Counted from the stretch's first letter, positions 47,833 through 57,927 are shown. The stretch is 64,000 bases of DNA from an uncultured Nitrospiraceae bacterium (GCA_963730935.1 CAVSTP010000002.1:96001-160000), one strand, 5' to 3'. The notes: generated from the sequence alone by a model not told the origin. Numbers and translations: made by a program.

Positions 47833-48198
47833 ATGGATGACATCAGGGCATACCATCGAGGTCTCTACCGCCTGTCGTTAACGTATCCCGCCATGTACTG
47901 CATCACGTCGACCGTCGGAGAAGGAACGATCACCAACCTGTCGGCCATGGGATGCTCGATCGAAACGGACGAGCCGCTCCCCACACAGCAGCACGTGGCG
48001 CTTCGCCTGCTCCTTCCCGACAAAACAGAATCCTTGGCAATCGACGAAGCCGAAGTCAAATGGGTCAAGGGCACGCGCGCCGGCGTCGAATTCATTCAAG
48101 TGGAGCGGAAAGCCAACTTACGCTTGCATTCCTTCGTTTGGGACAAGATGATCGAGCGGATTCAGCAGCTTCAACAACAGCGCGCCGCCTTATCCTAG
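47833..48198 (+). CDS. Single-domain PilZ protein
   Basis: RGLYR and NLSAMG motifs; VKW...GVEF. Confidence 0.85.
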   Translation: MDDIRAYHRGLYRLSLTYPAMYCITSTVGEGTITNLSAMGCSIETDEPLPTQQHVALRLLLPDKTESLAIDEAEVKWVKGTRAGVEFIQVERKANLRLHSFVWDKMIERIQQLQQQRAALS

Positions 48199-49200
48199 TT
48201 TTGGAGCGTCTCGCTTTTGTCCTCTTCCCATCGCCGCCAAGCAAAGCAGTCCGATTCCGATCCAGACTAGTTCTCGGAAACGCCGCAAGAGCGCGAAGGT
48301 AATCCCCGTGACGTCCGAATACCCGAAGGCCTTCAGCAACAATAAATTGCCTCCGTCCTGCGTGCCCAGACTCCCCGGGATAAAAAAAGTTCCGCCTTTG
48401 ATGAACACCGACAGCGCGCCGATGGAAATCGCGGACAATAGCGAGGCTGGACCTCCCAAATACAAAATGATCACATACACTTCCACGGCTTCCGCCAGCC
48501 ATCCCAGAAGGTAGAGCGCCGTGGCCGCGTAGAAGGCCGACCGATGGTGCATGTAGAAATTGAGGATGATCCCGTCCAGCGACCGCAATTTCTCCTCGCG
48601 GCTCTCGAGAAAGGCCACATGCAGACCGAGCCCGCGCAGCGTCCGGAGGATCCACATGAACAGCCCACGCTTCTGCACGAAAATGAAGGCTGCAACTCCG
48701 AATAACAGCAAGGCGACAGAAAGGAGGCTGGCTGCCGCAACTTGGCCGGATGATCCTTCCGCGCCCAGCATCCAGAACGCCAGCGCAATCCCCACCAGGA
48801 TGAATAGCACCTGGGCAAGCGTCATGATGGTCTTGGCGATCACGACTGATGCGAGTCCTTCGACCATCGGGATCTGGTGTCGCTGGAGAAAATAGGCCTT
48901 GAGCGGCTCACCGCCGACATACGCGGTGGGGGTCGTCATATTGACCACTTCGCCGGCCGTCCTGATTGCAAGAATCTTCCAGAAGGCAATGCCGTGTGCC
49001 GCTGAGCCTAGCGTGAGCTTCCACCCATAGGCTTCGAACACATACATCAGCAGCGAAGGGATCAATATGACGAGGAGCGCACCGGAACCGACTTGGGTGG
49101 CCGCTTCATAAATTTTACCTGGACCGATGTGCCAAACGAGGAGAGTGAGGGTGAGGAAACCGAGAGCCAATAGAAGATAACGCCACACGCTATGAGGCAA
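48190..49200 (-). CDS. Lysylphosphatidylglycerol-synthase TM-domain (UPF0104, flippase-like) membrane protein
   Basis: N..TP.AYVGGEPLKAY; PGSLGTQDG; LLRR; multiple TM helices. Confidence 0.85.
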   Translation of the reverse strand: MPHSVWRYLLLALGFLTLTLLVWHIGPGKIYEAATQVGSGALLVILIPSLLMYVFEAYGWKLTLGSAAHGIAFWKILAIRTAGEVVNMTTPTAYVGGEPLKAYFLQRHQIPMVEGLASVVIAKTIMTLAQVLFILVGIALAFWMLGAEGSSGQVAAASLLSVALLLFGVAAFIFVQKRGLFMWILRTLRGLGLHVAFLESREEKLRSLDGIILNFYMHHRSAFYAATALYLLGWLAEAVEVYVIILYLGGPASLLSAISIGALSVFIKGGTFFIPGSLGTQDGGNLLLLKAFGYSDVTGITFALLRRFRELVWIGIGLLCLAAMGRGQKRDAPKLG

Positions 49201-49277: not shown

Positions 49278-50672
49278 TCACGCAGACGGTCTGGTTGCAA
49301 TCGCGGCCGGCCGGATGATCCAAATCATGACTCCGGCGAATGCGAGCGACCCGATTGCGGCCAGCCACAGAAATGCTTCGAGCTTCCCGAGGAGGGCAAA
49401 CAGGAACACGACGACGGAAAAATCCCTGGTGGCGACGTTCTTCAACATGAAATCCGACCAAGCCGCATGCAACGGTGTTTTCCATTCACTGGCCGTCTTG
49501 ATTTTTTGAGCCCTGTTGATCAACAAAAACGACAGAGCGTTACCGCAAATGGCAGCAGCTCCGAGAGCAAGTGGGATCCAGGCGTGATCACCGCCGGCCG
49601 CCTCCCGATAGGCCCCGATGGAGATTCCACCGAAGATGGCCATGTGCACGACATTATCAAGTGCGAGATCCAACCATGCACCAAATGCAGACTCGGTGAA
49701 CGTCAAACGGGCGACTTCCCCGTCGCTACAGTCAATGATCGCCGCCAGTTGGAACAGCAGTGCCGCACCAAGACCAGCGGCATATGTCCCGAAGGCAAAC
49801 CCTGCCGCGGCGACAAGACCGATCACGGTGGCCAGGATCGTAATGGCGTTCGGCGACCAGCCGAGCGCAAGAAACGCTCGCGTACACCACCGCGATAATT
49901 TCCGATTGAAGTAACGATCGACGACGCCTTCGAACTCCCCTTTCAGCGACGAATATAAGCGACGCTCGGCCTGGCGTAAATCGGCGTTGGTGAGGACCGG
50001 CTGATACCAGCGGGATGAATCGTCGTCTCTCGTCGTCAGCAGGCGCACACGGCCATCTACAGCGGCTCGCTCCAGCCACCTGGCAATCGGCACCGTGTCA
50101 AACTCGGCCGCCAATCGTCCGACGGCGCTCAGCTCCGACGCCGGCATCACCATCACGTCCGCGATTGCGCCGATGCCGCCTGACCTCCATGCACGCGCCA
50201 CTGCCTCCGAACCGGTGTCTTCGGTGGTCGGCAGTCCCACGACAATCGCCTGGCCAGCACGGACATCGCGGCGCAATTCTTCGATCAGGGACCGGGGAAA
50301 CACTGTGCCGACCCCCGACACCAGGCAAGCCCCCCGCACTTCAGCGGCGAGCGATTCCCAGGTTCGGGGATCGTCCAAGGGGAATTCTCGGATTGGCATC
50401 CACCGCACGGGCACCGTCACGCGCGGTCCTTTGTGAAGCGCCTGCTTCAGTTGCTCTTCCTCCGGTCCGGAAAGGACGATCAGTTGCCTGATTCCGGCCC
50501 GCTGGAGCGTGAGGATGGTCCGCTGAAAGAGACTTACGCCTACGATCGGAGTGAGCGGCCCGACCGCCTTCCGCACGGGGGCGCCGAAAAGATCAATGGA
50601 GGGGAGCAATACAGCCGTTGATAGCCCTTGGAGTTCCGTGCCCTTGTCTAAGGTCGGTTCATTCATCGACAT
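49278..50672 (-). CDS. Degenerate nucleotidyltransferase-like domain fused to a CDP-alcohol phosphotransferase
   Basis: Intact DCSDGEVAR-x8-G-x3-D-x3-D motif; DRYFNRKLS..SPNAIT; N-terminal GVSLFQRTI..L..AGI. Confidence 0.85.
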   Translation of the reverse strand: MSMNEPTLDKGTELQGLSTAVLLPSIDLFGAPVRKAVGPLTPIVGVSLFQRTILTLQRAGIRQLIVLSGPEEEQLKQALHKGPRVTVPVRWMPIREFPLDDPRTWESLAAEVRGACLVSGVGTVFPRSLIEELRRDVRAGQAIVVGLPTTEDTGSEAVARAWRSGGIGAIADVMVMPASELSAVGRLAAEFDTVPIARWLERAAVDGRVRLLTTRDDDSSRWYQPVLTNADLRQAERRLYSSLKGEFEGVVDRYFNRKLSRWCTRAFLALGWSPNAITILATVIGLVAAAGFAFGTYAAGLGAALLFQLAAIIDCSDGEVARLTFTESAFGAWLDLALDNVVHMAIFGGISIGAYREAAGGDHAWIPLALGAAAICGNALSFLLINRAQKIKTASEWKTPLHAAWSDFMLKNVATRDFSVVVFLFALLGKLEAFLWLAAIGSLAFAGVMIWIIRPAAIATRPSA

Positions 50673-50696: not shown

Positions 50697-51416
50697 TCAA
50701 AGGTTTGGGAGTATCTCCCGCTCTGCCTTCTCGATATCTACTGCAAAATCAATCTCGGTCCAGGGCAGCCCTCCAATGACTTCATAGCCTACCTTGACGT
50801 CGCGGAAGAACCCGATGAGCGCGTCTTCATAGTCCATGTGCCAGGCGTCACGATCCACGAACGTCCTCAAGGACGCCACGACATGGGGAGTGTCCGCATG
50901 GCGCACTTTGAGAAATCCGACGCCCTCCCCGGCCTGGTCATACCGCGACGGCATCTTTTTGGTCAGCGCGATTACGCGTCCACCTTCGGCAACGACCATG
51001 CATTCTTCGCCGGTCTGCTTGACGGAATCATCCATCAGTAAGGCGTTGGGATACGCCGACCGCACCAACCGGCGCAGAATGTCCCGGTGAAAGAGCACGT
51101 CGGCATCCATGATCACCACGTCATCATCCAGCGCCGTACGTGCTATCCAAAGTGAGGAAATGCTGCCACGATGGAACTGCTCGTTCACCAAAAACTGTAC
51201 GCGCACCCCGAAGGAGTTGGCCTCGACGGCCGCACGAATCATATCCTGCTGGTATCCGACGACAATATCGGCACGCTGCACACCCAGACTGGCCAGCGAA
51301 GCCAAATAGCGTGAGAGCAAAGTTTGCCCGCCGATTTCAATGAGGCATTTGGGACGGTGCTGCGTAACGGGCCAGAGACGCTTCCCGACTCCGGCGGCCA
51401 AAATGACGGCTTTCAT
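50697..51416 (-). CDS. LicC/PntC-like (phosphonate) cytidylyltransferase
   Basis: MKAVILAAGVGKRL.P.T...PKCL; DADV; GEGVG; W.EID...D. Confidence 0.85.
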   Translation of the reverse strand: MKAVILAAGVGKRLWPVTQHRPKCLIEIGGQTLLSRYLASLASLGVQRADIVVGYQQDMIRAAVEANSFGVRVQFLVNEQFHRGSISSLWIARTALDDDVVIMDADVLFHRDILRRLVRSAYPNALLMDDSVKQTGEECMVVAEGGRVIALTKKMPSRYDQAGEGVGFLKVRHADTPHVVASLRTFVDRDAWHMDYEDALIGFFRDVKVGYEVIGGLPWTEIDFAVDIEKAEREILPNL

Positions 51417-52495
51417 CCAGGCTTGCCGATCTCTTCAAAAACATCGAGGAACTCCACGAACTGCTGTTCGGCGAGGGCGCCCATGTTGGCAATGCGGAAG
51501 ATCTTGTGTTCGAGATTCCCTTGGCCGGCATAAATCACGTATCCCCGTGCCCTCAACCGAGCATGCAGTGTCTGATACGAAAATCCCTCCGGCAGGTAAT
51601 AGGCGGTGATACTGTTTGATTGCCGGTCCGGTGGAAGCACGGGTTTGACGCCGATCTTCGCCATTCGCTCACGAATCAACATCGCCATCCGTTTATAGCG
51701 CTGAATGCGCTTGGCCACCCCCTCTTCCAGAAGTTCGTTGAGCGCTTCGTCGAAGGCGTAATAGATCTGAATTGCCGGAGTGAACGGTATGACCCCTCGA
51801 CCCTGATCATCGACGTAGTGCGTCAGATGCAAGTACCAGGACCGCTTGGGATAGGTGCGCATCCGCTCCAAAAAACCTTTGCGCACGAGGACAAAGGAGA
51901 CGCCGGGAAATCCCTGAATACATTTGCCTGCAGTTCCCGCCACCATGTAGATCTTTGAACCGGCAATATCGATGTATTCTCCCCCCAAGGCACTCACGGC
52001 ATCCAGAATGAAGACGCGGTTCAGTCCGTCAACGACTTCGGCGATGGCCTTCCCCGGATTGAGCAACCCCGTGGTTGTTTCATGATGGACCATTCCCACG
52101 GCATGGACTTCCGGGTGCTGCCGGAGAGCGAGACGCAGACGCTCGGGATCCGGCCGCTCAGTCCAATCATGCTTGAGCTCCGAGACCCCCAGGCGATGCA
52201 GCCCGACCATCTGCGCCATCCGCTCTCCATAGACGCCGTTATTGATGATCAAGGCGCGTTTGCCATGGGGGATGGATGACATCAAGGCCGATTCAACTGC
52301 CGCGGTGCCCGAACCGGTGATCAGGACGGCGGTATAGTCAGCTTCTGCTCCCGGCACAAACGCGTTCAACAGCTTATTCTGGATGCCGTGCTGTAATTCG
52401 GCGAAGTCCGACTCGCGATGGCAGATGTCGGGACGGTTGAGCGCCTGCCGTACACGCTCCGACACATTCACCGGCCCGGGATTTAACAACATCAT
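51413..52495 (-). CDS. 2-aminoethylphosphonate aminotransferase (PhnW/AepZ-like, class V PLP enzyme)
   Basis: LLNPGP, GSGTAAVE, NGVYGERM, HHETTTG.LN, DAVS, GKCIQG.PG, FTP, YAG..FRI.NMG. Confidence 0.88.
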   Translation of the reverse strand: MMLLNPGPVNVSERVRQALNRPDICHRESDFAELQHGIQNKLLNAFVPGAEADYTAVLITGSGTAAVESALMSSIPHGKRALIINNGVYGERMAQMVGLHRLGVSELKHDWTERPDPERLRLALRQHPEVHAVGMVHHETTTGLLNPGKAIAEVVDGLNRVFILDAVSALGGEYIDIAGSKIYMVAGTAGKCIQGFPGVSFVLVRKGFLERMRTYPKRSWYLHLTHYVDDQGRGVIPFTPAIQIYYAFDEALNELLEEGVAKRIQRYKRMAMLIRERMAKIGVKPVLPPDRQSNSITAYYLPEGFSYQTLHARLRARGYVIYAGQGNLEHKIFRIANMGALAEQQFVEFLDVFEEIGKPG

Positions 52496-52525: not shown

Positions 52526-53104
52526 TTATTCTATCGCCTTCATAAACCGGTTCGTAATGTCCGGGGGATCGAGCACGATACGTCCGGCATCTTCTGCGAA
52601 CTCATTGACTTTGATAAGCAGCAGGCTCGGTCCTTCCTTCTTCAGTATGTCCTTGAATTCATAGACCAGATCGTCACGGTCCAGTACGCGTTCTACATTC
52701 ACATAGCCGGCAGCCTTGGCGACCTTGTCGAGCGCAACGACATTTGAAATCGTCGGCTGGTTGCCTGTCGTGCCGTACACCTCATTGTCGAACACGACAT
52801 GAATGAAGTTCCTCGGTCTCAACGCACCGATCGTGGCCAGCGTGCCCATCCCCATCAGGACATTGCCGTCGCCATCGAATATGACGACTTGTTTCTCCGG
52901 TTTGGCCAGCGCCACGCCCAGCGCGATGGCTGGCGCGTTCCCCATGGACCCGATCATGTAAAAATGTGTCGGTCGATCGGCGATTTTCTGCACCTCGCGC
53001 GACGGGAATCCGTTGCACACAATCAACGGCTGGTCCGTCAACAACTCAAGCAGCGCAGCCATCGCCTGGGCCCGGCTGATCAATGTTCCCTGCTCCGGCC
53101 TCAT
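52526..53104 (-). CDS. Phosphonopyruvate (ComE-like) decarboxylase beta subunit
   Basis: FYMIGSMG; ThDP motif DGDG...N; ATGA overlap with the alpha subunit. Confidence 0.85.
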   Translation of the reverse strand: MRPEQGTLISRAQAMAALLELLTDQPLIVCNGFPSREVQKIADRPTHFYMIGSMGNAPAIALGVALAKPEKQVVIFDGDGNVLMGMGTLATIGALRPRNFIHVVFDNEVYGTTGNQPTISNVVALDKVAKAAGYVNVERVLDRDDLVYEFKDILKKEGPSLLLIKVNEFAEDAGRIVLDPPDITNRFMKAIE

Positions 53105-53598
53105 GGATGCAAACCCTTCACGACCCCTTTGGTGATGAACAGCGCTACCGGAATCCGCTGCTTCATGAACGTTTCCGCGACCCACTTAAAATCTTCGATC
53201 GCCGTCTTTTCGGTCAAGGTCCGGTGGGGAATTTTCATCGTATCAAGAAACTGGGGCATGACCTCGCCCATCACGAGGTGCTCGGGTGCGTCCTTGCCGC
53301 CCTGACCGCGCCATGACACGATCAGGATGCAAGGCTGCCGGTAGATCACGTTCAGCGAAATCAGCGTGTTGAGAGACGTGCCCAGTCCCGAGTTCTGCAT
53401 CAGCACCGCGGGGATCTTCCCGCCCATATAAGCGCCCGCAGCCATGGCTACGGCTTCATCTTCGCGGACGGCAGGCGTGTAGAGGCGCCTATCCATCAGC
53501 TCGGCGATGATTCCTCCGAGAATGGAATCGGGGACGCCGGTGAAAAAATTCACCCCCATGTCCTGCATGGCCTGTACGAACGCATCGCTCTCGATCAT
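53101..53598 (-). CDS. Phosphonopyruvate (ComD-like) decarboxylase alpha subunit
   Basis: FFTGVPDS, REDEA, MQNSGLG, SWRG..GKDAPEH..MG. Confidence 0.85.
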   Translation of the reverse strand: MIESDAFVQAMQDMGVNFFTGVPDSILGGIIAELMDRRLYTPAVREDEAVAMAAGAYMGGKIPAVLMQNSGLGTSLNTLISLNVIYRQPCILIVSWRGQGGKDAPEHLVMGEVMPQFLDTMKIPHRTLTEKTAIEDFKWVAETFMKQRIPVALFITKGVVKGLHP

Positions 53599-53636: not shown

Positions 53637-53666
53637 ATTATAAGCCATGCTACGACGCTTTCTCAA
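53637..53666 (-). promoter_or_regulatory. Candidate sigma70 promoter for the decarboxylase-to-flippase operon (TTGAGA-N18-TATAAT)
   Basis: Perfect TATAAT at 53642-53637 and TTGAGA at 53666-53661 on the minus strand. Confidence 0.55.
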
Positions 53667-53714: not shown

Positions 53715-54221
53715 ATGCGACTCGGTTGCGCTTTGCTCACAGCGTGGCTGCTCTGGGCTCCTGCCCTCGCCGGCGCCGTGTCGATGACGAACGATCCGAA
53801 GGGGTTTCGCAACATCGTGTGGGGGGCGGCGTTGAACACGCGGACGGATCTGGAGCGGACGCGCCAAGGCTCTAACATCATCGAATACCGGTTCAAGAAC
53901 ACGCAGCCTTCGTTCGCTGATATTCCGGTGGAAAGCCTTCAGCTCTCCACAGTGGATGATCAATTTGCGCGCGTCACCATCCGGTATCGTGGCGAGGACA
54001 CGCATAAAAAGATTCTGGCATATCTCGAGTCGGAGTTCGGCCGCATGGAACGCTTGCCCGGACAAATGTTGCGCGGGCTGAATCAGCAGTACAACTGGCG
54101 CGGCACTGAATCGGAGATCAACCTGACGTATCAGGCCGGCACAGAACGCGGGTATCTCTTCTTGGACAGCCGGACGCTGGCGCCCCGATTCAACGATTTG
54201 CTCGCCGATACGGCAGAGTAG
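53715..54221 (+). CDS. Secreted hypothetical protein, paralog A
   Basis: Signal peptide (..APALA-); DPKGF..I.WG motif; homologous to the next ORF. Confidence 0.8.
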   Translation: MRLGCALLTAWLLWAPALAGAVSMTNDPKGFRNIVWGAALNTRTDLERTRQGSNIIEYRFKNTQPSFADIPVESLQLSTVDDQFARVTIRYRGEDTHKKILAYLESEFGRMERLPGQMLRGLNQQYNWRGTESEINLTYQAGTERGYLFLDSRTLAPRFNDLLADTAE

Positions 54222-54225
54222 CCTC

Positions 54226-54771
54226 ATGTTCGACCGGCCGACCTTCACCCCTCGCGCATGCCTCACCGCCGTCTTGTGCGTGCTTTTCTGCGGCAGCCCG
54301 GCGTTTGCCGTGCAGATGAAAGAAGATCCCAAGGGGTTCGAGGGAATCCCCTGGGGAGCCACGCTTTCCGAATCGGAGACCTTCGGGAAAGTCGAGGACG
54401 CAGGCCGGCTGAAGACGTATGAACTGAAAGGCGGACCGCCGTCCTTTGGCCCGGCAAAAGTCGAATCGATGAGGTTCACCACCGTGGATGACCGATTCGC
54501 GCGCGTTACCGTCCGATATCAGGGCAAAGAGACACATGATCAACTGCTGGCCTTCCTTCAATCCCGATACGGCTCTCTCGATCGCACCCCGGGGCAGTTC
54601 GCCGGAGGGGCCGTCAAACTCTTTGCATGGCAGGGCGTAGAGACGGAAGTGAGCCTCCGCTACGAGACGCGCACCGATCGCGGCATCATCTTTTTTGAGA
54701 ATCCCTTGCTCGCCAGCCGGATCGAAGGCGCGATGGCGCCGGAGCAGGACCTCGGCGGAGCCACATACTAG
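54226..54771 (+). CDS. Secreted hypothetical protein, paralog B
   Basis: Signal peptide (..SPAFA-); DPKGF..I.WG and VDD.FARVT.RY.G..TH shared with the previous ORF. Confidence 0.8.
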   Translation: MFDRPTFTPRACLTAVLCVLFCGSPAFAVQMKEDPKGFEGIPWGATLSESETFGKVEDAGRLKTYELKGGPPSFGPAKVESMRFTTVDDRFARVTVRYQGKETHDQLLAFLQSRYGSLDRTPGQFAGGAVKLFAWQGVETEVSLRYETRTDRGIIFFENPLLASRIEGAMAPEQDLGGATY

Positions 54772-54844
54772 CTCTCGAACACGCATCTGCGCAAAACTTT
54801 TCATTGACAATGCCCGTACGGCTTTCGCATCATGCGCCATCATC

Positions 54845-56524
54845 ATGCATAACGCCACAAAGTTACGGGAGGCCCTCAAGAGGCCGGGAGCACTCAAGGT
54901 CGTCGGCGCTCATGACGCACTGAGCGCTCGTCTGATCGAGCAGGCTGGCTTTGACGGCGTATGGGCCAGCGGCTTCGCTATTTCCGCCTCGTTGAAGTGC
55001 ATTCCGGATGCCAGCTTCATCACCTCCAGCGAGCAGCTCGAGGTTGAACGCAACATCGCCGACGCGGTGAACATTCCGGTTATCGCGGATTGCGACACCG
55101 GGTATGGCAACGCCTTGAACGTCATGCGCACGGTGAACGATCGCGAACGGGCCGGCATCGCCGCCATTTGCATTGAAGACAACGTATACCCGAAGCGTTG
55201 CAGCTTTTACGCCGGTGTCCGCCGAGAGTTGATCCCGGTTGAAGAGCATTGTGGAAAGATCAAGGCCGCCAAGGCGGCGCAAACGGTGCCGGACTTCATG
55301 ATTATCGCCCGCACGGAAGCCTTGATTGCCGGTTGGGGACAGGAAGAGGCACTGAAACGAGCGGAGGCGTATGCGAAAGCAGGAGCGGACGCCGTCTTGA
55401 TCCACTCCAAATCAAAAACCTTCGACGAACTCAGGACTGTGTACAGACTCTGGTCCGGGCAGGTTCCGCTGGTTGTGGTTCCGACGATCTTTGACCAAAC
55501 AACTGCGGAGGACATGGAGCAGGCGGGTGCGAAGATCATCATTTACGCCAATCAACCGGTCCGCGCCGCCATTCGGGCCATGAAAGAGACGCTGGCCCTC
55601 CTACGAAAAGACACCCGGCCGGGCGCAGCCAACGATCGCATCGTCACCTTGCCGGAAGTGTATGACATCGTTGGCGTGCCGCAAATGGAGCAGGATGAGA
55701 AAGCATTTCTTCCGGTCGGCGGCGAAAAAATCACAGCCATCATTCCGGCGGCGGGATTCGAAAAGCAATTGCTTCCCCTGATCGAGAACAAACCCAAGTG
55801 TCTGCTGGATATCAAAGGCAAAACCATCCTCGAGCGGGCCGTAGGAGCGCTCAACGAGGCCAATATTAAGGAAATCGCAGTCGTGCGCGGCTATAAGAAG
55901 GAAGCCATCGCACTGCCCAACATCCGGTATTACGACAATGATCGGTATGAGGAGACCGGAGAGCTGTTCTCCATTTTCTGTGCGGAAAGCGAGATGAAGG
56001 GGCGGACCATCGTGCTCTACGGGGACATCATGTTTGACAGTCCCATATTGGAAAAGCTATTGAAGAGTCCGGCCGATATCGCCCTCGTCGCGGATTTGGC
56101 CTGGAGAGACCAACACCAACGTGGCGGACCTTCCTCTCATCTCAATCCGGATCTCGTGACCTTCGCGGAACCGCCCGGAAACAGTTCCCACTCACGATTC
56201 GTCATGGGAGACGAGGAACACCGGGTTGTGAAAATCGGCCAGCACCTGCCGTTCGACCATGTGCACGGCGAATTTATCGGCATGGCGATGTTTTCCGAGA
56301 AAGGCACACAAGCGCTGAAGGACTGCTACCGTAGCTCGCAAGAGCGGTATAAGTCTTCGGGGTTTCACGAAGCCAGCAGCGTCAGCAAGGCATCCTTTAC
56401 CGACCTGATACAGGAATTGATCGATCAGGGACACCGCGTCGACGCCGTGCCTATTTTCAAAGGTTGGATGGAAGTCGATTCTTTCGAGGAATACCAGAAG
56501 GCGTGGGCCAAAATCCGCCACTAA
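54845..56524 (+). CDS. pepM: Phosphoenolpyruvate mutase-like enzyme fused to a C-terminal nucleotidyltransferase
   Basis: GAHDALSA, WASG, ADCDTGYG, EDNVYPKRCS, ARTEA, IHSK, IYANQ; C-terminal AIIPAAG...KPKC.L and W.EVD; phosphonate gene context. Confidence 0.8.
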   Translation: MHNATKLREALKRPGALKVVGAHDALSARLIEQAGFDGVWASGFAISASLKCIPDASFITSSEQLEVERNIADAVNIPVIADCDTGYGNALNVMRTVNDRERAGIAAICIEDNVYPKRCSFYAGVRRELIPVEEHCGKIKAAKAAQTVPDFMIIARTEALIAGWGQEEALKRAEAYAKAGADAVLIHSKSKTFDELRTVYRLWSGQVPLVVVPTIFDQTTAEDMEQAGAKIIIYANQPVRAAIRAMKETLALLRKDTRPGAANDRIVTLPEVYDIVGVPQMEQDEKAFLPVGGEKITAIIPAAGFEKQLLPLIENKPKCLLDIKGKTILERAVGALNEANIKEIAVVRGYKKEAIALPNIRYYDNDRYEETGELFSIFCAESEMKGRTIVLYGDIMFDSPILEKLLKSPADIALVADLAWRDQHQRGGPSSHLNPDLVTFAEPPGNSSHSRFVMGDEEHRVVKIGQHLPFDHVHGEFIGMAMFSEKGTQALKDCYRSSQERYKSSGFHEASSVSKASFTDLIQELIDQGHRVDAVPIFKGWMEVDSFEEYQKAWAKIRH

Positions 56525-56673: not shown

Positions 56674-57093
56674 ATGAAAGGCAATTTACTTAAACAGAAT
56701 CTGGTAGCGCCCCGCACGCATACTCCTCTTGACCGCCGCTACGCCGAACGGGCACTCATCCAGCATGACGTCACCTACACTAGCACTGAAGGTGCCAGGT
56801 TCACGACCTCCACTGGCTCGCTGAAAGATCTCTCAAAGACCGGCTGCAAAATCGTTGGAACAACGCTTCCGGTCGTTGGGGTCCGTGTCACGATCACCTT
56901 GTATTTGAACGACGGACAGGCGCCCTTGTGTCTAACGGATGCTTCTGTCTCGTGGATCAAAGGCAATGTCTTCGCCGTACGATTTCCTAAGTTGACCGAC
57001 GACGAGCGGAAACGGATTCAAGGGGTCGTCTGGAAACATGTCAGCTTGTCCGACGCTAAAAATCACCGTACGGCCTTCCGCATCGTCATCTAA
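56674..57093 (+). CDS. Single-domain PilZ protein
   Basis: RYAER and DLSKTG motifs; GGAGG RBS. Confidence 0.85.
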   Translation: MKGNLLKQNLVAPRTHTPLDRRYAERALIQHDVTYTSTEGARFTTSTGSLKDLSKTGCKIVGTTLPVVGVRVTITLYLNDGQAPLCLTDASVSWIKGNVFAVRFPKLTDDERKRIQGVVWKHVSLSDAKNHRTAFRIVI

Positions 57094-57135
57094 CCGTTAT
57101 GCGGTCGCATTGGGTAGGAGCTGAGTAAGGGAGGA

Positions 57136-57534
57136 ATGGGCATGAGACAAGCGAGCATCGACAGGTCCCGCCGGACTGACAAGCCATCTGACGACAACCG
57201 CCGGGGAACCGAGCGAGTCCCCGCTCAGTTCAGCTTGATGTACTCGGGCATGAGTGACGGCCGCATGCTGATCGGTAACGGCGTCGTGAGCAACGTCTCA
57301 AAATCCGGCATTGGAATTCTGGGCAACCATCCGGTCAAACACGGAATGGATCTGTCCCTTTTTATCGACCTCCCGGGCATCGAGGAGCCGATTTGCATCG
57401 CCGAAACCCGAGTCTCGTGGGTGTCGGGACGGCGTTTCGGAGTCGAAATGATTGCGCCAAAATTGGACGTGCAGAATGAGCTGCGGTTTTACGTCTGGAA
57501 TCATCTGTATCGGCAAGATGCCAAAAAACCATAA
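57136..57534 (+). CDS. Single-domain PilZ protein
   Basis: RGTER and NVSKSG motifs; VSW...FGVE. Confidence 0.85.
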   Translation: MGMRQASIDRSRRTDKPSDDNRRGTERVPAQFSLMYSGMSDGRMLIGNGVVSNVSKSGIGILGNHPVKHGMDLSLFIDLPGIEEPICIAETRVSWVSGRRFGVEMIAPKLDVQNELRFYVWNHLYRQDAKKP

Positions 57535-57546
57535 CAGGGTGATGCA

Positions 57547-57927
57547 ATGAAACAGGCAAGACTTCGAGCCCTCCGATCCCAACACCGCACTCATCCGGCC
57601 TGCGATCGTCGGACGGACCACCGAGTCCACATCGATTTCCGGCTCATGTATTCGGCACAGGACGACCGAGAAGAAATGATCATGGGCGACGGCAGTGTGG
57701 TCGATCTTTCCAACAAGGGACTACGCATCCGTGGCAACATGGCCGTAAAGTCCGGCCTCGAAATGACGTTGTTTCTCTATCTTCCCGACGGGCGTGATCC
57801 CCTCTTTGTCCTTAGTGCAAAGGTGGCATGGTCGAAGGGTCACGAGTTCGGCGTGGAGATTCTGAAGATGAATGTGCGCGAGCGCAATCGCTTACGTTAC
57901 TTCCTCTCCTCGAATCTGCAGCACTAG
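57547..57927 (+). CDS. Single-domain PilZ protein
   Basis: RTDHR and DLSNKG motifs; VAW...FGVE. Confidence 0.85.
   Translation: MKQARLRALRSQHRTHPACDRRTDHRVHIDFRLMYSAQDDREEMIMGDGSVVDLSNKGLRIRGNMAVKSGLEMTLFLYLPDGRDPLFVLSAKVAWSKGHEFGVEILKMNVRERNRLRYFLSSNLQH

Follow-up and report, generated by a model that had tools for sequence, protein, structure and literature searches.

The window, a stretch of 64,000 nucleotides from an uncultured Nitrospiraceae bacterium (GCA_963730935.1 CAVSTP010000002.1:96001-160000), carries on its forward strand a gene for a PEP-mutase-like protein fused to a nucleotidyltransferase domain. The pathway context proposed from the sequence alone was recovered: an operon of predicted phosphonate genes is encoded by the other strand, 1.2-6.7 kb upstream of the mutase gene and past two hypothetical ORFs. 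The features of the locus are:

54845..56524, forward strand: PEP-mutase/nucleotidyltransferase fusion of 559 aa (PF13714, residues about 1-291, followed by a PF12804 domain)
55175..55204, forward strand: active-site loop EDNVYPKRCS, residues 111-120 of the fusion (translation and alignment)
54804..54833, forward strand: predicted sigma-70-like promoter TTGACA-N18-CATCAT, ending 11 nt before the start codon (consensus match and conservation)
53715-54221 and 54226-54771, forward strand: two paralogous hypothetical ORFs between the mutase gene and the operon
53637..53666, reverse strand: predicted sigma-70-like promoter upstream of the decarboxylase operon, 11/12 match (4 such sites were found against 3.6 expected by chance)
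53101..53598, reverse strand: TPP-dependent decarboxylase alpha subunit, split Ppd-like (TIGR03297 128.8 bits, TIGR03845 108.7 bits, both below cut-off)
52526..53104, reverse strand: TPP-dependent decarboxylase beta subunit (best PDB match 9IZ3, E 2e-27)
51413..52495, reverse strand: 2-aminoethylphosphonate (AEP) aminotransferase-like protein (TIGR03301 340.7 bits, cut-off 360.8)
50697..51416, reverse strand: PntC/LicC-type cytidylyltransferase (best PDB matches 6PD1, E 4e-14, and LicC 1JYK)
49278..50672, reverse strand: CDP-alcohol phosphotransferase (PF01066 at residues 274-430; N-terminal region without a family match)
48190..49200, reverse strand: HpnL-like/LPG_synthase_TM flippase-like membrane protein (family matches)

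All 80 related loci have a TTGAC-like box ahead of the mutase start. In the 25 loci that were viewed, the TTGACA...CATCAT box ended about 5-13 nt before the start, with no obvious ribosome-binding site, and this arrangement suggests a leaderless or near-leaderless mutase mRNA. The products of the two hypothetical ORFs are about 170-180 aa long and hydrophobic at the N-terminus. They have no Pfam or NCBIfam match, and their nearest Atlas clusters are unnamed and mostly from Nitrospirota. Both are probably outside the pathway, because they are retained in genomes without PepM too. On the other side of the mutase gene, three tandem PilZ-domain ORFs (56674-57927, forward strand) are followed by a TetR-family gene and RND-like efflux genes.

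For the decarboxylase beta subunit of the operon, the sulfopyruvate model gives a marginally better score (185) than the phosphonopyruvate-type model TIGR03297 does (176); in the PDB this subunit is best matched by 9IZ3, the putative beta subunit of a phosphonopyruvate decarboxylase. In the PntC-like protein, the residue equivalent to Tde-PntC E196 is again Glu, and that equivalent to E104 is Asp, as in LicC. Judged by the Tde-PntC positions in section 8 of PMC6697681, its substrate pocket may be of an intermediate kind.

The sequence-only reading of the loop as E-D-N-V-Y-P-K-R-C-S was borne out by translation and by conservation in relatives. The loop runs on as FYAGVRRE, in which Tyr122 and Arg127 are typical of the clade, and it departs at two positions from the EDK-x5-NS motif used to recognise PepM. 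In a phmmer alignment with PepM of Mytilus edulis (1M1B chain), Cys119 falls on Asn122 and Asn113 on Lys116, while Lys120 and Ser123 of the Mytilus loop are retained. Mytilus D58, D85, D87 and E114 correspond to D55, D82, D84 and E111, so that the Mg ligands are kept, and K120, S123, R159 and H190 correspond to K117, S120, R156 and H187. We take Lys120 of the Mytilus enzyme to belong with the phosphoryl-binding residues. Every residue named as metal- or phosphoryl-binding in the accessible part of PMC7916636 is retained in the alignment except Asn122. The WASG, ARTEA and IHSK motifs, at residues 40-43, 155-159 and 186-189, had been taken as PepM-type. They do set the protein apart from the lyases, but all three also occur in a Sinorhizobium protein annotated as a hydrolase. 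This protein, from a Sinorhizobium meliloti plasmid (L281, 1601-2473) and annotated as phosphonopyruvate hydrolase, reads EDKTFPKVTS in its loop and has IHSK where the Variovorax hydrolase has IHSR.

The closest structure by sequence was PepM 5UNC (E 5e-85). The AlphaFold model (pLDDT 95.5) matched 5UNC with a TM score of 0.97, followed by Mytilus PepM, the hydrolase and the lyases; in Foldseek, ranks 1-10 were PepM chains, with the hydrolase at 13 and lyases from 16. None of four NCBIfam models accepts the protein, which scored 274 bits with TIGR02320 (PEP mutase; cut-off 319.55), 264 with TIGR02321 (phosphonopyruvate hydrolase; 374.4), 198 with TIGR02317 (PrpB; 354.4) and 152 with TIGR02319 (carboxy-PEP phosphonomutase; 420). 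Two of four other Cys-type proteins scanned scored higher with the hydrolase model than with the mutase model. A canonical Nitrospirales PepM, about 41% identical to the Cys-type protein, scored 380 on TIGR02320.

Comparison with known enzymes placed the protein nearest to canonical PepM (Streptomyces platensis 5UNC, Mytilus edulis 1PYM/1M1B). It shares with them the predicted fold (TM 0.95-0.97), the metal ligands, the Arg, His and Ser phosphoryl contacts, the loop Lys and Ser, and the PF12804 fusion, which the available text of PMC6697681 reports in 33% of Ppm. It differs in having EDN-x2-PKRCS-FY instead of EDK-x5-NS, in scoring below the TIGR02320 cut-off and in lying outside the EDK clade described below. 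The phosphonopyruvate hydrolase of Variovorax (2DUA) shares 44% identity, the fold, a loop residue other than Asn, W-x-SG and AR-x-EA, but has Thr, EDK and YGNH where the Nitrospira protein has Cys, EDN and YANQ, and the latter is fused and lies in a biosynthetic context. Thus the features of a hydrolase (a score above the TIGR02321 cut-off, Thr at the Asn122 position and a catabolic operon with a transporter) are absent. Relatives of 2-methylisocitrate lyase (PrpB; EDQ-x2-PK[KR]CGH) have the loop Cys at the same position, preceded by Arg or Lys. In contrast, they carry Gly-His after the Cys, ARTDA and a lyase segment, where the Nitrospira protein has Ser-Phe, ARTEA and IHSK, and they are separated from it by supported branches. 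With KRCSF and a score below the model cut-off, the protein lacks the K[KR]CGH loop and profile match of a lyase.

The loop is strongly conserved. In the query and the best 120 of 3255 homologues, 117 of 121 proteins read EDNVYPKRCS, three EDNMYPKRCS and one EDTVYPKRCS, PKRCS being present in all 121. Of 422 genome loci, the best 80 comprise 78 with EDNVY and two with EDNIY, each followed by PKRCS; these two Val/Ile replacements are the sole non-synonymous loop changes, while all ten codons vary synonymously (for the Cys, TGC in 67 and TGT in 13). This conservation in protein and genome relatives, together with the synonymous variation, rules out a sequencing error or chance as the source of the loop. 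All but two of the 80 loci are titled Nitrospira or Nitrospiraceae (the exceptions being Planctomycetaceae, L014, and an uncultured bacterium, L029), and they include Nitrospira moscoviensis, which carries the Cys type only. The best 150 representatives at 50% identity, which as a sample lean toward the query, included 93 canonical proteins, 22 with ED[NS]xxPKxCS, 25 with the Cys in any form and 21 with ED(not K)..NS. The last group, which includes P0141, P0143, P0167 and P0165, fails the strict motif too.

The search for such proteins and their neighbourhoods that had been suggested from the sequence found Cys-type loci beyond Nitrospiraceae. Proteins with the loop are labelled Thermodesulfobacteriota, Ca. 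Binatia, Deltaproteobacteria, Nitrospiria, Methylomirabilota and Desulfurellaceae. Scanning metagenomes for EDNxFPKRCS gave at least 80 loci, with fusions making up 52 of 62 complete ORFs. Of the loci of at least 6 kb, 22 of 39 carried ppd or aept, which were absent nearby in the other 17; most of the 22 contained a co-directional pepM-ppdA-ppdB-aept-pntC(-CDP-OH) operon headed by relatives of 50-62% identity. Viral contigs gave no match to the EDNx[FY]PKRCS DNA pattern. Plasmids gave 442 records, all below 60% identity, and motifs were read in three of them. In RNA data, 18 runs matched, none with half the words; the four that were inspected are no sign of transcription, because they are assembled contigs that span the neighbouring genes too.

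To place the loop in the family, a tree of 54 chosen sequences was computed with its columns removed (IQ-TREE, LG+G4 without mixture, rooted on the lyase types; bootstrap not converged, 0.956). A small EDQ..PKRC[GA] family branches first, followed by a 47-sequence clade (100/98) that holds both EDN and EDK proteins. Within it, the 19 EDK proteins, which comprise the canonical PepMs and the two hydrolases, group together in a single clade (95/95). EDN proteins, whether they have Cys or Asn, fall outside that EDK clade, in a relative order that is poorly settled, so the Nitrospira protein is not nested among canonical EDK-x5-NS sequences. Monophyly of the Cys type was neither recovered nor rejected (p-AU 0.36), and the backbone of a FastTree phylogeny was poorly supported. 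Arg118, Tyr122 and Arg127 are found in 19, 21 and 21 of 22 Cys-group proteins and are infrequent or missing among canonical proteins, so that the two groups differ over the loop as a whole. Three representatives (P0185, P0203 and P0210) with EDQ-x2-PKRC[GA]-L[YF]P, ARTD[AS] and PISK, and without the catalytic His, lie between the lyases and the PepM-like proteins. A lyase-type family member (G336:C2:36210-37007) has an internal TAA.

Since the EDN proteins fall outside the supported EDK clade, it is more likely that the Cys was retained from a lyase-like ancestor than that it was re-acquired. The simplest reading would start from the lyase loop EDQ..KRCGH and pass by way of EDN..KRCS to EDK..NS. 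The sequence-only reading had described a hybrid in which Asn changed to Cys; given the loop-free tree, this direction is probably backwards.

In the source genome, which is 99.9% complete, a single PepM-like gene was found, and just one further member of the family, which belongs to the KKCGH lyase type. A canonical pepM elsewhere, which would have offered another supply for the pathway, was found neither in this genome (tblastn, six-frame scan for EDK-x5-NS, TIGR02320) nor, as a second gene matching a canonical query, in 31 Cys-type genomes. The source genome also gave no ComA and no PhnX above cut-off. All six downstream genes were present in 49 of 49 loci with at least 8 kb of upstream sequence, and ppdAB-like genes were adjacent in all 49, coupling the mutase gene in the genome to a predicted consumer of phosphonopyruvate. 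A neighbouring EamA transporter is poorly conserved, being present in 4 of 49 loci.

The gene set resembles the 'Burkholderiales_CDP-OH' or Group 1 clusters (section 13 of PMC8942020; Mycetohabitans, L280). As in the description given there, it comprises a Ppm-PntC fusion, Ppd, AEP transaminase, a second PntC, a CDP-alcohol transferase and an LPG-synthase-domain protein, the last two being the lipid genes. The Nitrospira locus differs in that Ppd is split in two, the mutase is divergently placed and non-canonical, and relatives adjoin hopanoid genes. The 2OG-Fe(II) oxygenase gene of the Group 1 clusters was not seen among the Nitrospira operon ORFs scanned. In the accessible part of PMC8942020, Group 1 clusters are predicted to make phosphonolipids and no product from the group is characterised. 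In 55 clustered loci, an HpnJ-family ORF was found in 11, HpnI in 9 and HpnA in 5. In other lineages, HpnJ and HpnI, or HpnA and farnesyl diphosphate synthase, adjoin the Cys-type pepM; loci with hopanoid-gene neighbours are L168, L194, L201, L204, L210, L224 and L237, and L098 and L099. Because Hpn genes lie near Cys-type pepM and the source genome has a hopene cyclase, a hopanoid acceptor for the phosphonate is possible.

We then compared the distribution of the two PepM types. Of 401 genomes of the phylum that were searched, 131 belong to the order Nitrospirales: 30 carry the Cys type (68-100% identity), 96 the canonical type (39-42%), none both and five neither. About 22 genomes with both would be expected if the types were independent, a contrast inflated by kinship among the genomes, so that the counts overstate independence. 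Outside the order there were one Cys-type and two canonical-type genomes. EDK-x5-NS was present in all 42 sequences fetched from the 98 low-identity matches, and PKRCS in all eight high-identity matches fetched, one of them with EDS.

The operon is kept whichever PepM is present. Genes aept and ppdB were found in 66 of 66 chosen genomes of either type, and the CDP-alcohol transferase in 31/31 Cys-type genomes, 30/30 canonical genomes and 0/15 genomes of the same class without PepM; the CMP-activation and transfer genes thus track the presence of either type. In canonical genomes, the operon was intact at 29 of 29 loci, 28 of which had no pepM match at the operon. The canonical gene sits amid unrelated housekeeping genes, in differing places, at all seven loci examined, two of which have their own Ppd; over 22 loci, a Ppd lay beside it in eight. 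On the operon tree (aept+ppdB+ppdA, 108 sequences, FastTree), the PepM type changes state at least nine times, five sequences from genomes without PepM being left out of the count.

One genome (G041) preserves a step of this process. A decayed Cys-type pseudogene, with stops and a large internal deletion, remains between intact neighbours in the old slot (L282:8484-9026), and a complete canonical pepM lies on another contig, which gives the direction of replacement as from Cys type to canonical. The Cys type has been swapped repeatedly for canonical pepM in related bacteria, and the two behave as genetically interchangeable. Because of this mutual exclusion, the retention of the operon either way, the at least nine switches and the pseudogene, the Cys type is very probably a working mutase. 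Two observations speak against this reading. In four genomes (G060, G386, G260 and G284; L144-L147), ppdAB and aept are kept, while PepM, PntC and the CDP-alcohol transferase were not found; they form one clade and represent a single event. In a further genome (G372, 95% complete), every operon gene is retained and no PepM was found.

Taken together, we consider the Nitrospira protein to be a working PEP mutase of a distinct, probably early-branching EDN-x2-PKRCS subfamily, with a probability of about 0.87. The sequence, the predicted fold, the gene context, the mutual exclusion and the replacement were observed, and from them we infer activity, mechanism and product. Comparative genomics thereby supports the cryptic clade of C-P bond-forming enzymes first proposed from the sequence, as a predicted activity. 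In the proposed pathway, the Cys-type enzyme would rearrange Mg2+-bound PEP to phosphonopyruvate, and the split decarboxylase would pull the reaction on to phosphonoacetaldehyde, shifting the equilibrium toward AEP and CMP-AEP. The aminotransferase would form 2-aminoethylphosphonate, and CMP-AEP would be made by PntC or by the fused nucleotidyltransferase domain. The CDP-alcohol transferase could then attach AEP to a lipid of the membrane, perhaps one related to hopanoids, and the HpnL-like protein would move the phosphonate lipid. The most likely chemistry would be the dissociative, metaphosphate-like transfer described for canonical PepM in the available text of PMC7916636 and PMC4030948. 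The metal ligands are all kept, as are Arg156, His187 and Ser120, which hold the phosphoryl group. Cys119 would make a weaker contact than Asn122, a loss that Arg118, Tyr122 and Arg127, which vary together with it, may make good.

Within the mutase reading, Cys119 might instead act as a nucleophile, through a phospho-cysteine intermediate and a double displacement, which we regard as distinctly unlikely. PepM retains configuration at phosphorus, as a double displacement would give, and the Cys is invariant in 28 of 28 diverse EDNxFPKRCS-type proteins, although these were selected on that motif. Cys119 also occupies a position said in the accessible part of PMC7916636 to touch the phosphoryl group. 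However, loops without the Cys, EDN-x5-NS among them, also turn up on these EDN branches (21 of 150 representatives), which makes Cys and Asn appear interchangeable, and PMC4030948, as far as its accessible text goes, gives a concerted metaphosphate-like transition state with no trapped intermediate for canonical PepM. A broader proposal, that the EDN..CS enzymes are early PEP mutases using the kept lyase Cys as nucleophile in a second, covalent C-P mechanism, and that they supply common nitrifiers and several lineages without cultured members with an undescribed AEP lipid that may be linked to hopanoids, is unlikely.

Two further readings deny mutase activity. Phylogenetic bracketing gives no proof of activity, since the protein lies outside the EDK clade, and the closeness of the TIGR02321 and TIGR02320 scores (264 and 274) would suit a phosphonopyruvate hydrolase cleaving the C-P bond, or a PEP phosphatase, in which the Cys protonates the pyruvate enolate as the lyase loop Cys does. 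This risk is real, because PMC7916636 and PMC3266647, in the portions available, ascribe the mutase/hydrolase switch to Asn122 to Thr, at the position of Cys119, and because WASG, ARTEA and IHSK recur in an annotated hydrolase. Yet the known hydrolases lie inside the EDK clade, apart from the Nitrospira protein. The Variovorax gene sits with ABC-transporter genes, whereas the Cys-type gene carries a nucleotidyltransferase fusion and stands first in biosynthetic operons; a hydrolase would also destroy the substrate of the decarboxylase, and the Cys type is replaced by canonical PepM. We therefore regard hydrolysis as the least probable function of all. A lyase, or an enzyme for another substrate, in an operon for a sulfonate (sulfopyruvate converted through sulfoacetaldehyde into taurine) or for some other head group, would fit the match of R118-C119 to the lyase K/R-C-G-H loop, the resemblance of the split decarboxylase to sulfopyruvate decarboxylase, and the single four-genome clade that keeps ppdAB and aept with no PepM found. 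It is nevertheless very improbable: ComA was not found in the source genome, which has its own separate KKCGH lyase type, the lyase-type ARTDA and CGH are absent from the protein, the CMP-activation and transfer genes follow either PepM type, and orphan canonical PepMs substitute for the Cys type.

If the protein is a mutase, as we favour, it bears on how phosphonate producers are counted. In their accessible text, PMC12723261, PMC8942020, PMC6697681 and PMC9426474 use EDK-x5-NS as a hard filter in phosphonate surveys, and PMC6697681 reports that 22 fused proteins without the motif were discarded. A relaxed rule, in the part of bioRxiv 2020.11.04.368217 available, tolerates two missing residues if a TIGR03297 gene lies within 5 kb; it probably misses the Cys types too, because each half of the split Ppd falls below the cut-off of that model (129 and 176 against 312.5). 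Nitrospirota phosphonate genes are in print, with no loop analysis in the accessible text of bioRxiv 818815 and PMC10734540, and no paper describing the Cys loop was found in the literature within reach, which mostly excluded subscription journals and supplements. The undercounting of environmental producers foreseen by the sequence-only reading would hold for surveys filtered by the motif or by TIGR02320, but not beyond them, as JGI already lists Cys-type proteins as phosphoenolpyruvate phosphomutase and pepM is the name in one NCBI record. Of the 126 sampled Nitrospirales genomes with a PepM, strict filters would miss 30 (24%), along with relatives that carry the labels Binatia, Methylomirabilota, Deltaproteobacteria, Desulfurellaceae and Thermodesulfobacteriota. 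Global counts would be affected to a limited extent, because KEGG-style annotation names such genes pepM already. For the family itself, the Cys type would be a natural intermediate between lyase and mutase, in which the origin of C-P bond formation and the role of Asn122 may be addressed.
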